From NCBI GenBank assembly GCA_002011735.1, contig MTOQ01000058.1, positions 91 through 64,090 on the forward strand: DNA of 64,000 bases. The letters are read 5' to 3'. Below the pieces are notes generated by a model. That model searched no databases and was not told where the DNA came from. It was given only the letters and a program-made list of their open reading frames with translations. Positions 811 to 26,404 of this stretch are shown here, piece after piece. A program made the position numbers and the translations under genes. Every line of letters begins with the position of its first letter. The first letter of the stretch is position 1. This DNA is from Nitrospirae bacterium JdFR-81 (GTDB taxonomy: Bacteria > Nitrospirota > Thermodesulfovibrionia > UBA6902).

Positions 811-1296
811 CTATCTCCTTCTGGTTATCTCAATCCCCCACCCTCTTAATCTGTCAATGATGTGGCTTATGAGGGTGTCAAACTGCATCTTTATCTCTTC
901 TGAGAGTTCTGTCCCTGTCTCCAGGGACCCTGGCTGGATCCCTATGAGGCATATCTCTTTAAGGGGGAGCCCCTTCATCCTTATGGCAAAGAACAGGTCA
1001 GAGAGCCCTATCTGGTGGACCGATATCTTGGAGCCCAGGATGGCAGGGATGCTGTCGCCATCTATAAGCTTGATCGTTCCAGGTGGCTTCTTGAGGTCAA
1101 CCGCATCGATTATGATGAGCCTTTCGATATCTTCAAGGAACGGCAAAAGGTCAAGGCCCATTGTGCCACCATCAATGAGCCTCACGCTATCAGGGAACCT
1201 GTATCTCTCCTTCAGCTCCTTTATTACATGAACCCCAACCCCATCATCGCCTGTGAGCAGGTTGCCTACACCCAGTATGCCAGCCCTCACTCCCAC
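811..1296 (-). CDS. Hydrogenase maturation endopeptidase (HyaD/HybD/HoxM family)
   Basis: The N-terminal GVGNLLTGDDGVG motif and the ~160 aa size fit the family. It is the last gene of the hydrogenase operon. Confidence 0.8.
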   Translation of the reverse strand: MGVRAGILGVGNLLTGDDGVGVHVIKELKERYRFPDSVRLIDGGTMGLDLLPFLEDIERLIIIDAVDLKKPPGTIKLIDGDSIPAILGSKISVHQIGLSDLFFAIRMKGLPLKEICLIGIQPGSLETGTELSEEIKMQFDTLISHIIDRLRGWGIEITRRR

Positions 1297-1949
1297 TCTT
1301 TGCCTGTCACAAACTTATAGCCACTGAAGATCGAGCCCATCAGTCCGTTTCTCTCCTTCAGGTCTGCATACCATGCCATGTAGATGTGCAGGAGGGCATA
1401 TGCCAGAATGACATACATGCCAAGATGATGGAAGAGTCTTATGGTCTGAAGGTGCATCACACCTGTAACCCATCCACCAAGGAGGATCCATATCTTGCCT
1501 GAATGATTCAGTGAATACATGGCGAATCCAGAGACTATCTGGAAGAGGAAGATGAGAAAGAGGATGAAATACACAACCCCTGCCAGCGCGGTATGGCCGA
1601 CTGCATAGGGGGGCTTACGGATTATGAAGAGATAGAACTTGATGGCATCAGCAATGTCACGAAGCTTCCTTGATGAAAAAGGGAACCACACCCTGTAGCT
1701 TGCGTATCTGTTGCCCATGAACGCCCAGTAGAGCCTGATTATTATGCTCATCATAAAGGTATAGGCTGCTATGAAGTGGATGAACCTCATCCATCCCATT
1801 ATGTACTGTTTTGATGAGATTGCATGGATGAAGGGGTTGCCGATGTAAAAGCCTGTGATCGAGAGGGTCAGCACGCAGAGGACATTGATCCAGTGCGTAA
1901 ATCTGACAGGAAACTCCCATGCATATACCCTCAGTCTCTCATTCTTCAT
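1287..1949 (-). CDS. Ni/Fe-hydrogenase b-type cytochrome subunit
   Basis: A 220 aa polytopic membrane protein with conserved His residues, sitting immediately downstream of the hydrogenase large subunit (HyaC/HupC-like context). Confidence 0.75.
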   Translation of the reverse strand: MKNERLRVYAWEFPVRFTHWINVLCVLTLSITGFYIGNPFIHAISSKQYIMGWMRFIHFIAAYTFMMSIIIRLYWAFMGNRYASYRVWFPFSSRKLRDIADAIKFYLFIIRKPPYAVGHTALAGVVYFILFLIFLFQIVSGFAMYSLNHSGKIWILLGGWVTGVMHLQTIRLFHHLGMYVILAYALLHIYMAWYADLKERNGLMGSIFSGYKFVTGKEWE

Positions 1950-1961
1950 AAAGGCCTCCCT

Positions 1962-3710
1962 TCAGATCACCTTTATCCTTGTTACCTCCCTGCCCTCGGG
2001 GTCAAGGACATGCACTGCACATGCCATACAGGGGTCAAAGGAATGGACCGTCCTCAATATCTCAACAGGCTGTTCAGGATCTGCAACAGGTGTCCCGATG
2101 AGGGCCGCCTCATAGGGACCCCTCTGATCCTTTGCATCCCTTGGAGAGCCATTCCAGGTGCTCGGGACAACACACTGGTAGTTCTTGATCCTCCTGCCCT
2201 CTATACTCAACCAGTGCCCGAGGGCCCCCCTCGGTGCCTCATGAAATCCATAGCCCCTTGCCTCCTTTGGCCATTCTGATGGGTCCCACCCCTCTCTACT
2301 GTGAATCCTCAGGTCACCCTTCTTCATATTCTCTGCAAGCTGCCCAAGCCATACAGGTATCTGCTCTGCCGTTACAAGGGTCTCAACCCCCCTTGCTGCA
2401 ACCCTTCCAAGGGTTGAAAACAGGGCCGAGGGGCCAACCCCCAGTTTCTGAAGCACACTATCTATGACCTCTTTCACCCTCTTGTGTCCTGATGCATACG
2501 CAACAAGCATCCTTGCAAGTGGGCCCACCTCCATGGGTTTGTCATCATACCTTGGTGCCTTGAGCCATGAATACTTCCCGTCTGTGTCAAGATACTCATA
2601 AGGTGGTTGTGGTCCGGTATACCTATAATTGGTCTCACCATCCCATGGGTGCTTTGAGGTCTTATTACCATCTGAGTATTCATACCAGGAATGTGTCACA
2701 TATTCGGTTATCTTTTCATGATCCACCTTATGGACCTTCGAGAGGTCCTTATTCAGTATGATACCCCTTGGAAGCCACAGGTTCTCTGTATTGCTGACAT
2801 TATCATTCGGGAATTCACCGTATGCAAGAAAGTTTCCAACGCCTCCTCCATAGCCTGCCCATTCCTTGTAGAAGGACGCGACTGCGAGCAGATCGGGGAT
2901 ATAGACCTTCTTGACAAACTCCAGGGCCTTCTCTGCAAGACCTGTCATAAAGGCGATGCTTCCTGCATTCAGGGCATTCTGACTATTGGGATCAATAGGT
3001 ATGGACATACCACCAACGATATAGGTCTGTGCATGGGGATTCTTTGCACCAAGCAATGCCTGCATCTTTATGACATCCCTCTGCCAGTCAAGGGCCTCAA
3101 GGTAGTGTGCCACTGCCATGAGGTTTGCCTCTGGAGGGAGCTTGTACGCAGGATGACCCCAGTATGCATTTGCAAATGGACCAAGCTGGCCCCTCTCAAC
3201 GAAGGCCTTCAGTTTATTCTGCACGCCCTTGAAATACTCTGTGCTCGACTTTGGCCAGTCAGATATGGACTGCGCGAGTGAGGATGTCTTCTTAGGGTCT
3301 GCCTTCAAGGCACTTACGATATCCACCCAGTCAAGGGCGTGGAGGTGATAGAAGTGGATCACATGGTCTTGGACATACTGTATCCCAGTGATAAGATTCC
3401 TTATGAGTCTTGCATTGTCAGGGATGGTTATGTTTAATGCATTCTCGACCGCTCTCACCGAGGCGGTTGCGTGAACCGTTGTTCAGACCCCTCATATACG
3501 CTGGGTGAAATACCATGCATCCCTTGGATCCCTATTCTTGAGTATGAGCTCGATCCCCCTGAACATGGTGCTTGAGCTCCAGGCATCAACCACCCTTCCA
3601 CCCTCCACCTTTGCCTCGATCCTCAGGTGGCCCTCGATCCTTGTTATGGGATCAATGACTATCTTCTTAGCCAACTCATTCACCTCCCTTTTCTTCCTTT
3701 TTTCCTTCAA
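1962..3710 (-). CDS. [NiFe] hydrogenase large subunit with two in-frame TGA codons at the N-terminal Ni-ligand cysteine positions
   Basis: Track ORFs 3492-3710 and 1962-3458 share one frame. The reverse-complement translation reads ...AWYFTQRI-TGA-GV-TGA-TTVHATASVRAVENAL... where the consensus is RxCGxCxxxH. The minus-strand UGA codons correspond to plus-strand 'tca' at 3492-3494 and 3483-3485. The C-terminal DPCMACAVH motif is intact, and ITRIEGH and HFYHLHALDWVD are present. The true start may be the internal GTG near 3683. Confidence 0.8.
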
Positions 3711-4773
3711 ATATGGCCCTTCCTATACCATGGATCAGGAGACCTGCTGCGGTGGCCACTGCAAGGCCTGCCCCGACCTTATCCGCGGTGCTCTCCACCC
3801 CAAACCCTGGCGGATTTGGCAGCCTCTTATAAAATGGGCTCATCTTGTCCCAGAAGTATGGTTCAGCACACCCAACACAACCATGGCCTGCCTGGACAGG
3901 CCAGCTTGTGCCTTCGTTCCATTTAATGGTTGGACAGTTATGGAAGGTCTCGGGCCCTTTACAGCCCATCTCATAAAGGCACCATCCCCTTCTGTGTCCC
4001 TCATCACCCCATCTCCTCACAAACTGCCCTGCATCAAAGTGCGCCCTCCTCTCGCAATTGTCATGGATTCTCTTGCCATATGCAAAATAGGGCCTCCCCA
4101 GTTTATCGGTGAGGGGGAGCGACCCGAATGTTAAGTAATGAACAATACACGCAGTGAGATTCTCTACATTCATGGGACAACCTGGCAGATTGATCACCGT
4201 TGCATTAGGCACCGCCTCCTTGACGCCTACTGCACCTGTAGGATTTGGCTGTGCTGCAGGGATGCCGCCATAGGCAGCACATGTACCCACAGCTATTGTG
4301 GCAAGTGCATTGCCACACACCTCTCTTACGATCTCAACGGCTGACCTGCCTCCGATACAACAATACACACCCCCATCCTTCAATGGAATGGAACCCTCTA
4401 CCACCACAAAGTATTTACCCTTATTGTTTTTAACCACATCCATAAGTGACTTCTCTGCCTGAAAACCTGCAGGCGCCATGATGGTCTCGTGATAATCCAC
4501 AGAGAGGATATCAAGGATGATCTGTGCAACAGTGGGCTTGGTTGCCCTTAGGAGAGACTCTGTATCTCCGGCGCAGTCCTGAAACTCAAGCCACACAAGA
4601 TAGGGCTTTTTTGCATTGGTGAGTGCCTCTGCCATCCTTGGTGCAAATGAGGCAGGAAGGGCAAGCAGTGCACTCATTGCAGTGCAGAACTTCATAAAAT
4701 CCCTGCGCGATACCTTTTTGTTGAGGAAGGAAAGGGTCTCTGTGGAGGGGTCTTTCTCTAATACAGGGTCCAT
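3676..4773 (-). CDS. [NiFe] hydrogenase small subunit with twin-arginine signal peptide
   Basis: The SRRDFMKFC Tat motif is present. Cys clusters match small-subunit Fe-S ligands (CxGCxE, GCPP-like, HxxCPxxKW, CxGCxEP). The C-terminal TM anchor is typical of membrane-bound group-1 enzymes. Confidence 0.85.
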   Translation of the reverse strand: MDPVLEKDPSTETLSFLNKKVSRRDFMKFCTAMSALLALPASFAPRMAEALTNAKKPYLVWLEFQDCAGDTESLLRATKPTVAQIILDILSVDYHETIMAPAGFQAEKSLMDVVKNNKGKYFVVVEGSIPLKDGGVYCCIGGRSAVEIVREVCGNALATIAVGTCAAYGGIPAAQPNPTGAVGVKEAVPNATVINLPGCPMNVENLTACIVHYLTFGSLPLTDKLGRPYFAYGKRIHDNCERRAHFDAGQFVRRWGDEGHRRGWCLYEMGCKGPETFHNCPTIKWNEGTSWPVQAGHGCVGCAEPYFWDKMSPFYKRLPNPPGFGVESTADKVGAGLAVATAAGLLIHGIGRAIFEGKKEEKGGE

Positions 4774-22200: not shown

Positions 22201-22329
22201 AAGGTATTATAACATGATCAATAAACCCTATAGGTTTATAGTCCGATATCCTACCTGATCAGTTACGCTGTTGACTTTGGAGGCCAGATTCTGTTAGTTT
22301 TTTAAAAGATTTCCTAATTATTCCTTATC

Positions 22330-22406
22330 GGCGGTGTAGCTCAGCTGGTTAGAGCATGCGGCTCATATCCGCAGAGTCGTAGGTTCGAGTCCTACCACCG
22401 CCACCA
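22330..22406 (+). tRNA. tRNA-Met (CAT anticodon)
   Basis: A cloverleaf with a 7-bp acceptor stem GGCGGTG/CACCGCC, the D-loop AGCTCAGCTGGTTAGAGC, the anticodon loop CTCATAT, the T-arm GGTTCGAGTCC and an encoded CCA end. Confidence 0.8.
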
Positions 22407-22455
22407 TCTCCATCTCCCTTCATCATTTAGTTGATGGAATGGAGGGTTATTTTGC
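22407..22455. terminator. Bidirectional terminator hairpin between tRNA-Met and the convergent ZraP-like gene
   Basis: An imperfect inverted repeat CTCCATCTCCCTTCATCA...TGATGGAATGGAG followed by a TTATTTTG tract. Confidence 0.4.
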
Positions 22456-22965
22456 CTTCTCGTATATCTTTCTCTGAAGCTCCTGGATCTCCTTCTGGAG
22501 TTTTATAACGGTCTCCGTCTTTGTCTCAGGGTTACGGAGGGCTTCATAATATTCAAAGGTCTTGCTATTGAGCTGCCTCCTGAGATCGACCGTTTCATCA
22601 AGAAACCTCTGGTACCTCTCTGCACCATAACCCCACATCATACCAGGCCCCATCATCCCGCATCCACCATAGCCCATGCCGGATCCCATCATCATGTTGT
22701 GCATCATCCCATAACCATAACAAGGGCATGTGCCATAACCCATCATCCCTGATCCCATACCATATCCACCCATCATTCCTGGCCCCATCATGCCCATCAT
22801 CCCATAGCCCATCATCTGATACGGACTATAGTAGGTAGAGGTGGTTTCCATCCCTTCGTGGCGTCCCTGACCGCCACCACTCATCATGCCTCCCTCCATA
22901 TGGGCGAGGCTATCTGTTGTCAGTACGGCCAAGACCAGCAATATGCTTAAAAGGATACCCTTCAT
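22447..22965 (-). CDS. Secreted Gly/Met-rich ZraP/Spy/CpxP-like protein (paralog of 396-773)
   Basis: A signal peptide and a long MMG/GYG tract with CPC/GGCG motifs. The C-terminal RFLDETVDLRRQLNSKTFEYYEALRNPETK tail is nearly identical to that of the first paralog. Confidence 0.6.
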   Translation of the reverse strand: MKGILLSILLVLAVLTTDSLAHMEGGMMSGGGQGRHEGMETTSTYYSPYQMMGYGMMGMMGPGMMGGYGMGSGMMGYGTCPCYGYGMMHNMMMGSGMGYGGCGMMGPGMMWGYGAERYQRFLDETVDLRRQLNSKTFEYYEALRNPETKTETVIKLQKEIQELQRKIYEKAK

Positions 22966-22983
22966 CTCTTTTTACCTCCTTTT

Positions 22984-23163
22984 TTAACAACAATGACCAT
23001 GCATTTCATGGTCCTCTGTCTCTTCTGTATACCTCTCTGGCTCCCTCTCAAATGCCTCCTTACAGCCTACTGCACAGAAATAATAGGTCTTTCCCCTGTA
23101 TTCGGTCTTTGCCACGGCCTCATCCTCCCTAATCCTCATGTGACACACTGGATCGACCACCAT
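22984..23163 (-). CDS. YHS/TRASH-domain small metal-binding protein (59 aa, absent from the ORF track)
   Basis: Manual translation gives MVVDPVCHMRIREDEAVAKTEYRGKTYYFCAVGCKEAFEREPERYTEETEDHEMHGHCC. The DPVCxM...YYFC..GC signature and a strong RBS (AAAGGAGGTGA) support it. Confidence 0.65.
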   Translation of the reverse strand: MVVDPVCHMRIREDEAVAKTEYRGKTYYFCAVGCKEAFEREPERYTEETEDHEMHGHCC

Positions 23164-23312
23164 CTTCCCTTCACCTCCTTTCTTTGGCTTTAAGGTTTAA
23201 TCTATATATACCATACCCCCCTATGGTATGTCAAGGAAGGCCTACAGGAGAATAGATTAAACATTTACAATCATTATTATTTGGGATATAATGGGACTAA
23301 AGGCGGAGGATA

Positions 23313-24215
23313 ATGATACCTTATATTATCGCCCTTATAATGGCCTCCCTTATCTCCCTGATTCCCCAATCTTCCCGTGCGGAGAAGGCAAAAACGATTG
23401 ATGAGCTTGTAAAGATGTATGATATCACCCGGTGTATAGGGTGCCACAGGGACAAGTATGAGGAGTGGAAGGACTCGACCATGGGCAATTCGGTTGTTGA
23501 CCCCCGTGTCCTGAGGGGCTGGAGGACGTTCATAAGGCTTGAGCTTGATCAGGAGCCCACCCTCTCAAGGAAGGATCTGACCATATGCCTCAACTGTCAT
23601 GTGCCCCAGATAAAGGACGCCACACCAGAACTTGTTGAGCATATCGCGGAACTCGTGATAATGGCCGTTGAGGATAAAGATGAGGGGAAAAGGGAATACG
23701 CAAGGAAGGAGCTTTCAAAGCTCAATCTTAACTGTCTCAGTTGTCATCATTTAAGGGCAAGGGGGTTTGAGGGTGAGCCAGAGGAGGGGGTGCTTTACGG
23801 CCCCAGGGAGATAACCTCCTCTCCACATGAGGGCATAGGCTTCAAGACCAAAAGGTCAGCCCTAATGTCAAAGTCCGATTTCTGTGCACAGTGTCATCAC
23901 TGCCCACCCAGCGTCCCGTGGGAACAGTGTCCGACACTTTATACCTCATATGTTGAGGGCTTCCTTGAGAAGGGCAGGAAGGAGACCTGTCAGGACTGTC
24001 ACATGAGGGATGTTGACAGATCAAAGAAGTCAGGAGGCTGGAACCACAGATTCTATGGACCTGATGATATCGAATTTCTCAAGTCCGCGATCACACTGAA
24101 CGTAAGGGCAAGGCCCACAAGGTATATTGATATGTACGAGGGCAGGTTCATTCCCGCAGTGGTCCTTGAGGTTGAACTCACAAATAATGCAGGCCATGTC
24201 ATGCCCCATGGCTGA
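23313..24215 (+). CDS. Pentaheme c-type cytochrome
   Basis: A signal peptide and five CxxCH motifs (CIGCH, CLNCH, CLSCH, CAQCH, CQDCH). It ends at a TGA that is in frame with the next ORF. Confidence 0.75.
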   Translation: MIPYIIALIMASLISLIPQSSRAEKAKTIDELVKMYDITRCIGCHRDKYEEWKDSTMGNSVVDPRVLRGWRTFIRLELDQEPTLSRKDLTICLNCHVPQIKDATPELVEHIAELVIMAVEDKDEGKREYARKELSKLNLNCLSCHHLRARGFEGEPEEGVLYGPREITSSPHEGIGFKTKRSALMSKSDFCAQCHHCPPSVPWEQCPTLYTSYVEGFLEKGRKETCQDCHMRDVDRSKKSGGWNHRFYGPDDIEFLKSAITLNVRARPTRYIDMYEGRFIPAVVLEVELTNNAGHVMPHG

Positions 24216-24218
24216 GCA

Positions 24219-24536
24219 GTGATGCCAAGGGCGGTGCTGGAGGTCACCGTGAAGGATGATAAAAAAGAGGTGGTGTTTGCAAGAGAGCACGAGTTTACGG
24301 TCAACGATCTCTATTTTAAGGGTGGGAAACAGGTTGCAATGGCAGAATGGGATATAACAGCCACTGAACACTTTGACCTCGGTGTCAGACCCATTGAGCC
24401 ATATAAGTTTACATATGTAATACCACTAAGCCCTGACACGGCCTCTATTGAGGCAATCGCCCAGTTCAGATATCTCTATTCCCGTGATAAGACATTCGAT
24501 GTTCAGAGGGCCTCACATAAAGTCGTCATAGAGTAA
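24219..24536 (+). CDS. Hypothetical protein, in frame with and possibly a C-terminal continuation of the cytochrome
   Basis: It shares the frame of 23313-24215, separated only by TGA and GCA. Its N-terminus (PRAVLEVTVKDD) repeats the cytochrome's C-terminus (PAVVLEVELTNN). Confidence 0.4.
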   Translation: MMPRAVLEVTVKDDKKEVVFAREHEFTVNDLYFKGGKQVAMAEWDITATEHFDLGVRPIEPYKFTYVIPLSPDTASIEAIAQFRYLYSRDKTFDVQRASHKVVIE

Positions 24537-24595
24537 ACCGTTTCGATCTTCACAATCCCTTCACAATTGGGTTCTATCTTATAATATAGAGGAGA

Positions 24596-25027
24596 ATGGA
24601 AGAGATCGGGATAGTAAAGAGTGTTGACGGTGCCATGGCAAAGGTGGTCCTGGCACGCAGGAGCAGCTGCTGTGAGAGCTGTGAGAAGGATGTCTGCGAC
24701 ATCCCCGAAGAAGGGGTTGAGACCGAGGCCATAAATCAGGCAGGTGCAAAGGTCGGACAGAGGGTAAAGGTGGTGATGAAGCCCTATACCTTTATAAAGG
24801 GTGCTCTCGTCCTGTATCTCTTCCCAGTGGTCGCCCTGTTCTTGGGTGCCTTTGCCGGAAAGGTGTATCTGAGCAGGCTATTTGAAGGGACGGACAGTGA
24901 GCTCCTTGCAGCAGCCGGTTCACTCATCGCGTTTTCTGTCTCGCTCTTCTTCGTAAAGATAATCTCAGGGAGGATGTCTAAGAAGACGGAATACAAGTCC
25001 GTTATCGAATCTATTGTGGAGGGATGA
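24596..25027 (+). CDS. RseC/MucC-family protein (SoxR-reducing-system-like)
   Basis: An N-terminal Cys cluster (SCCESCEKDVC) followed by two TM helices, with an RseC-like size and layout. Confidence 0.5.
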   Translation: MEEIGIVKSVDGAMAKVVLARRSSCCESCEKDVCDIPEEGVETEAINQAGAKVGQRVKVVMKPYTFIKGALVLYLFPVVALFLGAFAGKVYLSRLFEGTDSELLAAAGSLIAFSVSLFFVKIISGRMSKKTEYKSVIESIVEG

Positions 25028-25028
25028 G

Positions 25029-25229
25029 ATGGCAGAGGTTACATTAAAGATCGAGGGTATGAGCTGCCAGCACTGTGTTATGAGTGTAAAGAAGGCAGTT
25101 GATTCACTGGATGGGGTGAGCTCATCGGATGTGGAGGTCGGAAGCGCAAGGGTGGTCTATGACGAAAGCAGGCTTTCTGAAGAGGCGATAAGGGAGGCCA
25201 TCAACCGTGCAGGTTATAAGGTGGTTTAA
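25029..25229 (+). CDS. copZ: Heavy-metal-associated (HMA) domain copper chaperone, CopZ-like
   Basis: The GMSCQHC metal-binding motif sits in a ~67 aa ferredoxin-like fold. Confidence 0.75.
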   Translation: MAEVTLKIEGMSCQHCVMSVKKAVDSLDGVSSSDVEVGSARVVYDESRLSEEAIREAINRAGYKVV

Positions 25230-25648
25230 TCCCTTTTAACAACCCTCTTCTTTATGGCGGCCTTGGCGAGTCTGTCTGCCTCCCTGTTTTCCTTTCTCTC
25301 TATATGGATGATATTATACTCCTTAAAGGTCTGAAGGAGGGATCTCGCCTTTGTCCAGAGCGGCAGGAGTCCCCTGTTTCTGACCCTGTATTGTCCGTTT
25401 ATCTGCCTTACAATAAGCTCTGAATCAAGAAAGACCCTTATCCTGTCCGTGCCCAATGTCTTTGCCGTCTCGAGCCCCTTGATCAGGGCCGTGTATTCGG
25501 CAACATTATTTGTGGTGACACCTATGTATTCTGAGATCTGAAGAGTCTTATTCTGCGAGGGGATACTGATGACTATACCTATACCTGCATCACCTGGATT
25601 CCCGCTCGATGCACCATCACAGTGAAGCTCGGTATATCCATTACCCAT
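25226..25648 (-). CDS. rnhA: Ribonuclease H (type 1, short archaeal/Bacillus-like form)
   Basis: DGASSGNPG, TNNVAEYTALIKGL, DSELIVRQ and ENREADRLA map onto the DEDD catalytic residues. Confidence 0.75.
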   Translation of the reverse strand: MGNGYTELHCDGASSGNPGDAGIGIVISIPSQNKTLQISEYIGVTTNNVAEYTALIKGLETAKTLGTDRIRVFLDSELIVRQINGQYRVRNRGLLPLWTKARSLLQTFKEYNIIHIERKENREADRLAKAAIKKRVVKRD

Positions 25649-25666
25649 CTCTGGTGTATGTCTTCC

Positions 25667-26404
25667 TCACTCACCCTCACGAACATGATGGGGTTGATAG
25701 TATAAAAACCTCTTACAGTAGTAACATGTAAAGATATCCTTGTTCTGTTTGATATCGTTGTATAATTGAGGCGGGATGTTGGTGTTACAACCAAGACACA
25801 CCTCGTTCTCTACCGGGACAACGGCTATACCTTCAAACTTCTTGAAGAGGTTCATATAGTGCCTGTAGAGCTCCTCATCCAGCCGGCTTACAAAATCCTT
25901 TCTCCTGCTCTTGTAAAACTCCATCTCCTTGTAAAGGGCCTTCTTCTCCTCCTCCAGTGCCCTCTCGTGCCTCTTCAGTTCCTCCTCTGCCTCCTTGACC
26001 CTTGACTCCTCTGCCTTTAAAACGCCATTCATACCTTCAAGCTCTTCCATATACTGGAGCAGTTCATCCTCTACTTCGTTCTTCTTCTTGTTATGGGCCT
26101 CTATCTCCTTGAGATGTGCCTCATACTCCTTGTTCGTCTTTATCTCCCTGCTCTTCTCCTTCAATTTATTAATCCTGTCCTGTATCTCGTCAAGCTGAAA
26201 TTCAAGGTCTTTCTTCCTCTTCCTGACCTCCTCATACCTTGCCCTAACACCCTGGAGCGCATTTGTTGCCTCTCTTAGATGATTACGTGGGTCTTTTAAA
26301 CGGGCAGGGAGTGATTCTATCTTCTCGGCTATAGAGAGTATGGAGGAATCCAGCTCCTGAAGTTCAACGAGAAGCCTCAACTGTTCATTCAATACCTTCT
26401 CCAT
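25667..26404 (-). CDS. Coiled-coil protein with C-terminal C4 zinc ribbon (COG1579-like)
   Basis: A long coiled coil is followed by CLGCN...CYYCKR. This arrangement is commonly found next to rnhA. Confidence 0.6.
   Translation of the reverse strand: MEKVLNEQLRLLVELQELDSSILSIAEKIESLPARLKDPRNHLREATNALQGVRARYEEVRKRKKDLEFQLDEIQDRINKLKEKSREIKTNKEYEAHLKEIEAHNKKKNEVEDELLQYMEELEGMNGVLKAEESRVKEAEEELKRHERALEEEKKALYKEMEFYKSRRKDFVSRLDEELYRHYMNLFKKFEGIAVVPVENEVCLGCNTNIPPQLYNDIKQNKDIFTCYYCKRFLYYQPHHVREGE

Follow-up and report, generated by a model that had tools for sequence, protein, structure and literature searches.

A gene for a predicted MccSep/ExtKL-family pentaheme selenoprotein lies between a putative CsoR-controlled copper unit and an RseC-like/CopZ-like gene pair in a Thermodesulfovibrionia-type Nitrospirota

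The 64,000-nucleotide stretch of contig MTOQ01000058.1 of Nitrospirae bacterium JdFR-81 analyzed here (the window) carries, next to a tRNA-Met gene, several small metal-binding proteins and a pentaheme cytochrome c that an original prediction had taken for one copper- or silver-handling module. All the genes that it named are present where it placed them, as supported by open reading frame (ORF), tRNA, and Pfam/NCBIfam evidence. Judged from its sequence, the cytochrome is a selenoprotein of the MccSep/ExtKL family, encoded by one gene, mccSep. The block is best read, with a probability of roughly 0.8, as three separable transcription units, adjacent to one another in the core chromosome of a Nitrospirota bacterium of Thermodesulfovibrionia type: a divergent pair encoding a YHS-domain protein and a Gly/Met-rich protein, mccSep itself, and a downstream pair encoding an RseC-like and a CopZ-like protein. 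This reading rests on the gene identities, on the signature of selenocysteine (Sec) or Cys at one codon, on the covariation of a downstream hairpin, on the linkage of an operator to csoR genes, and on synteny patterns.

Two ORFs (23313 to 24215 and 24219 to 24536) share a frame and are separated solely by the TGA at 24213 to 24215. Both the pentaheme cytochrome and the in-frame downstream ORF originally described are therefore present, but they are not separate genes. Read through the TGA, they give a 407-residue product that scores 276.7 bits against NCBIfam NF040886, the curated equivalog “multiheme c-type cytochrome (seleno)protein ExtKL” (cut-off, 250 bits), the match spanning residues 17 to 404 of the protein and positions 24 to 420 of the 423 of the profile. 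The product begins with a signal-like sequence (MIPYIIALIMASLISLIPQSSRA, followed by EK) and contains five CxxCH motifs (C41-H45, C92-H96, C141-H145, C191-H195, and C226-H230) that are invariant in the family alignment. It also matches the structures of MccSep from Geobacter sulfurreducens (PDB 9wt8 and 9wt9) with an E value of 3e-40. In this match C206 pairs with C239, the TGA-encoded residue U301 with U325, R65 with R83, and H96 with H122 of the Geobacter protein. C206 is invariant and R65 at least 90% conserved in the family alignment, and they are predicted to be the distal ligand of heme 2 and the substrate-site arginine, respectively.

The codon at the TGA site was compared in 81 family genes, taken from the window and the fetched loci, and it is TGA in 73 and TGC or TGT in 8. 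The peptide encoded 3' of it is conserved in frame across the family genes. Database homologues of approximately 400 residues have Cys exactly at the TGA position (...AGHxxPHG-C-A...), and those of approximately 293 to 300 residues all stop at ...PHG. Downstream of the codon, a hairpin with a 6-bp stem and a G-rich loop begins 18 nucleotides past the first base of the UGA (15 nucleotides past its last). Its covariation was tested with a fixed-register 6-bp stem over 62 Sec-type sequences; this test replaced RNAalifold, which for 11 close sequences returned a weak and partly different structure. The stem is paired in 94.6% of the cells, with compensatory changes at four of the six pairs (the window has G-C where most genes have C-G). 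The score was reached by none of 500 shuffles, and slid registers collapse. Moreover, the Cys-type genes of the family lack the hairpin. An Rfam scan of 20 to 28 kb returned tRNA only, with no selenocysteine insertion sequence (SECIS) or riboswitch family. A hydrogenase gene in the same window also has in-frame TGA at Cys positions, and a second gene of this kind fits an organism that uses Sec.

That the TGA at 24213 is a real stop, or the locus a pseudogene, with ExtK-like and ExtL-like proteins made separately, is hard to reconcile with its occurrence in 73 of 81 genes, with the Cys of the remaining genes, and with the strong in-frame conservation beyond it. The public gene calls do split the gene into products of 300 and 104 residues, the RNA after the UGA folds, as a single sequence, no better than shuffles (z score, −0.6 to −0.7), and the window is devoid of genes for the Sec machinery. 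The hairpin nonetheless covaries and is specific to Sec-type genes, and for the Geobacter orthologue there is direct evidence of read-through, of selenium in the protein, and of the Sec peptide (PMC13510729). The probability of a genuine stop is, in our judgment, negligible, and the locus is treated below as one selenoprotein gene.

MccSep of G. sulfurreducens (ExtKL, GSU2937-2936) was described by Mihara et al. (Sci Adv 2026, PMC13510729) as a periplasmic homotetrameric pentaheme selenoenzyme that arises by translation through the UGA, with the Sec shown by mass spectrometry and selenium content. The enzyme is a reductase of polysulfide and, to a lesser degree, of selenite and is indispensable for S0 respiration. 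It works with Sec and with a heme 2 that has His and Cys ligands, and it contains no copper (PMC13510729). Its homologues are concentrated in Desulfobacterota and in the Nitrospirota class Thermodesulfovibrionia, and in the same paper the electron donor is called unidentified and gene neighbors are not discussed (PMC13510729). The function of the window protein is predicted, from its sequence, to be that of a polysulfide (and selenite) reductase. Since it is homologous to the solved Geobacter enzyme, its expected role is in the respiration or cycling of sulfur and not in the handling of copper. In the proposed mechanism, mccSep would be transcribed from its own sigma-70 promoter, UGA-301 would be recoded to Sec with the aid of the hairpin 18 nucleotides downstream, and the pentaheme cytochrome would be exported through the Sec translocon. 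Electrons would run along the heme chain and arrive at heme 2, with its His and Cys ligands, as suggested by homology to the G. sulfurreducens enzyme. Polysulfide (or selenite) would be attacked there by the selenolate, giving an Se-S(n)-S-Cys intermediate that would in turn be reduced to sulfide.

The AlphaFold2 model of the protein consists of a helical heme domain and a C-terminal beta-sandwich, with U301 at the start of the latter and low confidence at approximately residues 192 to 206, 301 to 303, and 332 to 354. In a Foldseek library reaching to April 2026 and holding no MccSep entries, the best match was the pentaheme cytochrome c552 5ze8 (E value of 3e-14; TM score of 0.56), and the C-terminal domain retrieved generic ApaG/Ig-like folds.

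The family is also seen in other arrangements. One genome (L085) has two MccSep-family genes within 5 kb (L085:6001-7203 and approximately L085:10991-11877), one of them Cys-type and the other Sec-type of another clade. Three other Nitrospirota genomes (L017, L026, and L055) have an MccSep paralogue of approximately 33 to 35% identity at 1 to 2 kb from a radA/lipoprotein gene pair that also flanks the window block; the paralogue lies on the other side of that pair.

The promoter of mccSep is the best promoter-like site of the region (TTTACA, a 17-nucleotide spacer, and TATAAT; 11 of 12 matches). Equivalent hexamers precede mccSep in three related lineages (L081, L082, and L083) despite different upstream genes; in L082 and L083 these are succinate dehydrogenase and cytochrome c, or phosphoglucomutase, without the operator dyad described below. 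The gene is predicted from these hexamers to have its own sigma-70 promoter, and it is not under the CsoR operator.

The divergent YHS/Gly/Met-rich pair has a promoter of another kind. Operators of the CsoR/RcnR family, such as those of Bacillus subtilis CsoR and Escherichia coli RcnR, have a G/C tract between AT-rich inverted repeats. The original prediction had asked for a CsoR-type operator in the intergenic region, and one is indeed found at 23208 to 23229, inside the promoter of this pair, as the dyad ATACCATACCCCCCTATGGTAT (ATACCATA-C6-TATGGTAT). On the minus strand the order is a −35 TTGACA (23234 to 23229), the dyad, a TG-extended −10 TATATA (23210 to 23205), an AGGAGG ribosome-binding site, and the ATG of the YHS gene. 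The window contains this dyad once, and allowing up to three mismatches reveals no further copy. A 14-nucleotide outer inverted repeat (AAGGTTTAATCTAT at 23192 to 23205 and ATAGATTAAACATT at 23252 to 23265; 93% complementary) brackets the operator and ends at the mccSep −35; it is absent from L081 and may be a matter of chance.

The exact 22-mer was found on at least 120 metagenome contigs. Among the 80 of these loci that were fetched (L093 to L172), a CsoR-family ORF lies within 200 nucleotides of it in 56, and within 3 kb there is a P1B-ATPase in 14, an HMA gene in 13, and a YHS gene in 11; neither MccSep nor RseC is near the 22-mer in any of the 80. The flanks follow the consensus cTTGAC-dyad-AAT/ACT, with the −35 and extended −10 hexamers conserved around the dyad across loci, so that the promoter is wholly overlapped by the operator. 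The 22-mer and its TTGAC/−10 flanks are common to very different samples, in which the adjoining CsoR proteins are 26 to 84% identical to the reference. Since the exact 22-mer is retained beside regulators of such identity, the operator and promoter are far more conserved than the regulator itself.

In L081, an identical dyad heads a six-gene operon encoding CsoR, a YHS protein, a Gly/Met-rich protein, a 158-residue protein, a pyridine-nucleotide-disulfide oxidoreductase carrying a fused YHS domain, and a CopB-type ATPase that has a CPH motif and an N terminus rich in His. The 158-residue protein is secreted and rich in Met and His, and the YHS-oxidoreductase fusion is unusual. The L081 operon belongs to a larger metal island upstream of mccSep (L081:1-7816), which also contains another P-type ATPase and genes of the Uma2 and AbiEii-like kinds. 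A CstR-type persulfide sensor was weighed against CsoR, and CsoR was preferred on the Cys-His-Cys pattern of the L081 regulator, as in Cu(I)-sensing CsoR, and on the CopB-type ATPase that ends its operon.

The YHS/Gly/Met-rich pair of the window is a short, csoR-less version of this csoR-YHS-GMrich-...-CopB operon. Because the exact 22-mer lies within 200 nucleotides of csoR in 56 of 80 loci, the pair is read as a copper-responsive unit; from sequence we infer control by CsoR, including both repressor binding at the dyad and the activity of the promoter. The promoter, the spacer of which would be the operator, would be repressed by a CsoR whose gene would lie beyond the window. Once Cu(I) releases CsoR, two proteins would be made, one a small metal binder of the cytoplasm and the other a ZraP-like, Met-rich binder or chaperone of the periplasm.

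The gene nearest the operator-bearing promoter encodes the YHS protein, which has no signal peptide and ends in an HGHCC tail; its L081 orthologue lies between csoR and the Gly/Met-rich gene and has the same end. The second gene encodes the Gly/Met-rich protein, in which a signal peptide is combined with GMMG-type repeats that contain a few Cys and His and with a C-terminal domain that is helical and conserved. The L081 orthologue, inside the csoR operon, has Gly/Met-rich repeats and a near-identical C-terminal domain, and another locus (L152) has an 85%-identical match to this domain, also inside a csoR operon. The C-terminal 68 residues retrieve 326 representative clusters with the same architecture. 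The original label “ZraP-like” stands as a remote kinship seen through the family, where 8 of 44 members match PF13801 Metal_resist (best E value, 8e-6) and 1 of 44 matches ZraP NF008584. The window protein itself has no significant Pfam or NCBIfam match (PF13801 E value of 0.14 for the whole protein and 0.008 for the C-terminal domain alone).

These results bear on the proposal that all five genes belong to a single periplasmic module for Cu(I)/Ag(I) buffering and redox, a genomic island at the 3' end of tRNA-Met in which the cytochrome handles electrons for metal redox. Metal-binding signatures in four of the five proteins, a CsoR operator in the divergent intergenic region, and a full csoR-...-CopB operon in the same position beside mccSep in L081 would all suit such a module, and the block does adjoin a tRNA. 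However, the cytochrome belongs to a selenoenzyme family whose characterized member is free of copper and has polysulfide and selenite as substrates. Its promoter has no operator and is conserved where copper genes are absent upstream, and the units occur apart in other genomes. Relatives show no tRNA association, and the block has no att repeat, integrase, or compositional shift. A single integrated module is therefore very improbable. The copper theme survives for the divergent pair, which has the operator, and plausibly for the CopZ-like protein, but not for the cytochrome.

A tRNA-targeted genomic island is likewise not supported. No tRNA is close to the genes in relatives that share the MccSep-RseC-CopZ order, so that the conserved order without tRNA association, named beforehand as an observation that would refute the proposal, was found, for the MccSep-RseC-CopZ part and among close relatives only. 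The absence of an integrase was noted correctly, as none is present among the window ORFs. No att-like repeat of the tRNA 3' end was found in 22250 to 25700, and the GC content of the block (0.48 to 0.49) differs little from that of its flanks (approximately 0.50), with no compositional shift. In the FWPU assembly, MccSep (L083) and the csoR-YHS-GMrich unit (L152) are found on two separate contigs. In the Logan short-read contigs of the same strain, two contigs (L087 and L088) start exactly where the dyad begins, and a third (L214:1-175) ends inside tRNA-Met; because the contigs break at these two places, the 0.8-kb piece with the YHS and Gly/Met-rich genes was assembled separately. Strain polymorphism was considered as a cause of the breaks and dropped. 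The dyad and tRNA sequences are both repeated across metagenomes, because of which breaks are expected there, and these are probably repeat induced.

The third unit begins with the RseC-like gene. Its product is predicted to have two transmembrane helices, and its N-terminal domain has a C-x2-C-x4-C motif; across 33 homologues, the three Cys of this motif (C26, C29, and C34) hardly vary. The CopZ-like protein is cytoplasmic and scores 58 to 70 bits against the NCBIfam CopZ models, below their cut-offs of 85 to 95, and 64.8 bits against TIGR00003 “copper ion binding protein” (cut-off, 62). Its start codon, ATG 25029, comes one base after the stop of the RseC-like gene (25025 to 25027), which suggests that the two genes are translationally coupled. 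This ATG is most likely the true start, as called in relatives (66 to 67 residues); TTG 25014 is less likely. A literature search for a pairing or link of RseC with CopZ/HMA proteins found none. The pair is treated as a module of its own, which read-through from mccSep may reach.

The MccSep-RseC-HMA order is kept, on the same strand, in the window, L081, L082, L083, and L087/88, that is, in four species-level lineages with MccSep approximately 80% identical and, besides the upstream flank of the window, three others. On this evidence the three genes could be a true operon in this lineage, in which the membrane Cys-cluster and CxxC proteins would be dedicated partners of the enzyme, for example as a membrane or cytoplasmic link for electron supply or in thiol, chalcogen, or metal handling during maturation or turnover. 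A 59-nucleotide gap without a terminator between mccSep and the RseC-like gene, the coupling of the latter to the CopZ-like gene, and an electron donor called unidentified in the literature are all compatible with such partners. A weak promoter-like site (24560 to 24587), however, lies ahead of the RseC-like gene, and both accessory proteins face the cytoplasm, whereas the enzyme is periplasmic. Moreover, the RNase H-DUF164-RNase R genes beyond the CopZ-like gene are also kept in the relatives, and inherited synteny among relatives of approximately 80% identity thus explains the adjacency equally well.

More distant genomes likewise speak against dedicated partners. MccSep homologues of 47 to 64% identity are solo genes among housekeeping genes. 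In 80 GTDB loci with MccSep homologues, blastp of the window neighbors found no RseC, YHS, or Gly/Met-rich neighbor, the two HMA matches being an ATPase N-terminal domain (L001) and a small ORF (L077). MccSep of other clades, the characterized one included, has no such neighbors. Conversely, the RseC-HMA pair occurs without MccSep in one locus (L090) and RseC alone in two (L089 and L091). We therefore consider a dedicated operon unlikely. If it were real, it would offer a first genetic handle on electron supply, maturation, or protection of the MccSep class, and the recurrent adjacency of the CsoR unit might mirror a link of sulfide or polysulfide production with copper stress.

The reading of three separable units has to be weighed against several findings. 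Neither csoR (tblastn with the L081 CsoR; E value of ≤0.01) nor a copper ATPase, or any P-type ATPase, was found in the 64-kb window, and the regulator of the YHS/Gly/Met-rich pair must therefore lie elsewhere. No selA, selB, selC, or selD gene was found in the window either, so that the Sec decoding capacity of the organism is inferred, and the UGA may alternatively be decoded as Cys by a SelC*-type tRNA. The window protein differs from G. sulfurreducens MccSep in belonging to another clade with approximately 30 to 35% identity, in having PHG-U-A in place of PDG-U-P, and in a shorter C-terminal domain from which an insertion of approximately 25 residues is missing. MccSep K372 has no clear counterpart: I348 falls opposite it in the pairwise alignment, in a poorly alignable region with K336 and K339 nearby. 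Given this identity, the other clade, the missing insertion, and the unaligned K372, the substrate and the oligomeric state may differ from those of the Geobacter enzyme. Finally, the upstream flank of mccSep varies among the related lineages, and a CsoR-controlled unit lies directly upstream of it in two of the four (the window and L081), which may be more than chance. Downstream, the MccSep-RseC-CopZ order is kept in four lineages with three other flanks and no terminator follows mccSep; because of this, mccSep and the RseC-like/CopZ-like pair may be functionally linked, and the operon boundaries given here are probable ones.

The features of the block are collected in Table 1. It is flanked by housekeeping genes, with radA upstream and RNase H, a DUF164-type zinc-ribbon protein, and RNase R downstream.

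Table 1. Features of the tRNA-Met/mccSep block, in window coordinates
Feature	Position	Strand	Evidence
tRNA-Met(CAT)	22330-22406	+	
Gly/Met-rich secreted protein, 172 aa	22447-22965	-	ORF call
YHS-domain protein, 59 aa	22984-23163	-	Pfam YHS, E 7.6e-18
Predicted promoter of YHS/Gly/Met-rich unit with embedded CsoR-type operator	23205-23234	-	Sequence, flank consensus
Predicted sigma-70-type promoter of mccSep	23264-23292	+	Hexamer match
mccSep/extKL, predicted pentaheme c-type cytochrome selenoprotein, 407 aa	23313-24536	+	NCBIfam NF040886, PDB 9wt8/9wt9
In-frame TGA, predicted to be read as selenocysteine (U301), motif AGHVMPHG-U-AVMPR	24213-24215	+	81 family genes
SECIS-like hairpin, GCGGUG-CUGGAGGU-CACCGU	24231-24250	+	Covariation, 62 Sec-type genes
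RseC/MucC-family membrane protein, 143 aa	24596-25027	+	Pfam PF04246, E 2.5e-26
CopZ-like HMA protein, 66 aa, GMSCQHC	25029-25229	+	Pfam HMA, E 7e-16

The hydrogenase mentioned above is part of a Group-1-type membrane-bound [NiFe] hydrogenase operon (811 to 4773, minus strand) that encodes a Tat-type small subunit, a large subunit, a b-type cytochrome, and a HyaD/HybD protease. In the large-subunit gene (1962 to 3710, minus strand), two in-frame TGA codons replace both Cys of the N-terminal Ni motif (R-I-TGA-G-V-TGA-T at approximately 3492 to 3481), and the C-terminal motif is an ordinary DPCMACAVH. A hairpin (ACCGCCUC-GGU-GAGAGCGGU) lies 15 nucleotides past the second TGA. Another genome (L092), 83% identical, is the same at the double-TGA site and has the same downstream hairpin. 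Among the best 120 homologue clusters, 62 are truncated exactly at this point and the 58 full-length ones read R[IFA]CGVCTTVH. The one paper found on UxxU hydrogenases (September 2026, PMC13582414) reports this arrangement for Group 4 only and states that in Groups 1 and 3 Sec is in the C-terminal motif, bar three N-terminal CxxU cases. The double-TGA large subunit may thus be a new Sec variant of the Group 1 hydrogenases, and it is more unusual than the mccSep finding.

The main value of this analysis lies in a correction. In public gene calls, as when the letters alone are read, one selenoenzyme appears as two items, a “cytochrome” and a “hypothetical protein,” and the metal-binding neighbors then hint at a copper function. 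The MccSep identity, as read from the sequence, would assign a polysulfide-reducing (or selenite-reducing) capacity to this Nitrospirota organism, and with the window gene an enzyme family first described in 2026 gains a diverged member that is Sec-type and shorter-stemmed. The exact 22-bp CsoR operator in its fixed promoter architecture is a usable marker across many unrelated metagenomic lineages. The RseC-HMA pair beside MccSep is a lead on partners of the enzyme, although the evidence for a link is weak.

When the three units are compared with known systems, each shows likenesses and differences. The canonical cop operon combines CopZ with a CopA or CopB P1B-ATPase, and the window has no P1B-type ATPase beside its chaperone. 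Like E. coli RseC, which belongs to the SoxR-reducing system (rsxABCDGE-rseC), the RseC-like protein has a Cys motif in its N-terminal part and two hydrophobic helices after it. It differs in scoring 29 bits against an equivalog cut-off of 184 bits, in having no adjoining rsx or rnf genes, and in being paired with an HMA protein. The YHS/Gly/Met-rich unit resembles csoR-copZ-copA operons in its dyad between the −35 and the extended −10, the same 22-mer standing before csoR elsewhere; it differs from them in that the window has no csoR or copper ATPase and the promoter would drive only the YHS and Gly/Met-rich genes. The Gly/Met-rich protein, like ZraP, CpxP, and Spy, is small and secreted, and its C-terminal domain is helical. 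In contrast to these proteins, it stays below all thresholds, has a long GMMG-repeat region with Cys and His, and is preceded by a CsoR operator rather than placed under ZraSR or Cpx control.

The mccSep product shares a pentaheme domain followed by a C-terminal domain with the pentaheme cytochrome c552 of Thermochromatium tepidum (5ze8), to which it also has a weak sequence match; the identity is 17%, and 5ze8 is not a selenoprotein. In G. sulfurreducens there is an extHIJ cluster (ExtH, a rhodanese lipoprotein; ExtI, a porin; and ExtJ), none of which is beside the window gene, where the YHS/Gly/Met-rich pair lies upstream and the RseC-like/CopZ-like pair downstream. The hairpin of the window gene is also farther from the UGA than in the Geobacter-type genes. 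With G. sulfurreducens MccSep, the window protein nevertheless has in common the signal peptide, the five CxxCH motifs, the predicted distal Cys of heme 2 and substrate arginine, a SECIS-like hairpin downstream, and a putative UGA-encoded Sec in a GHxxPxG-U motif that opens the C-terminal Ig-like beta-sandwich.

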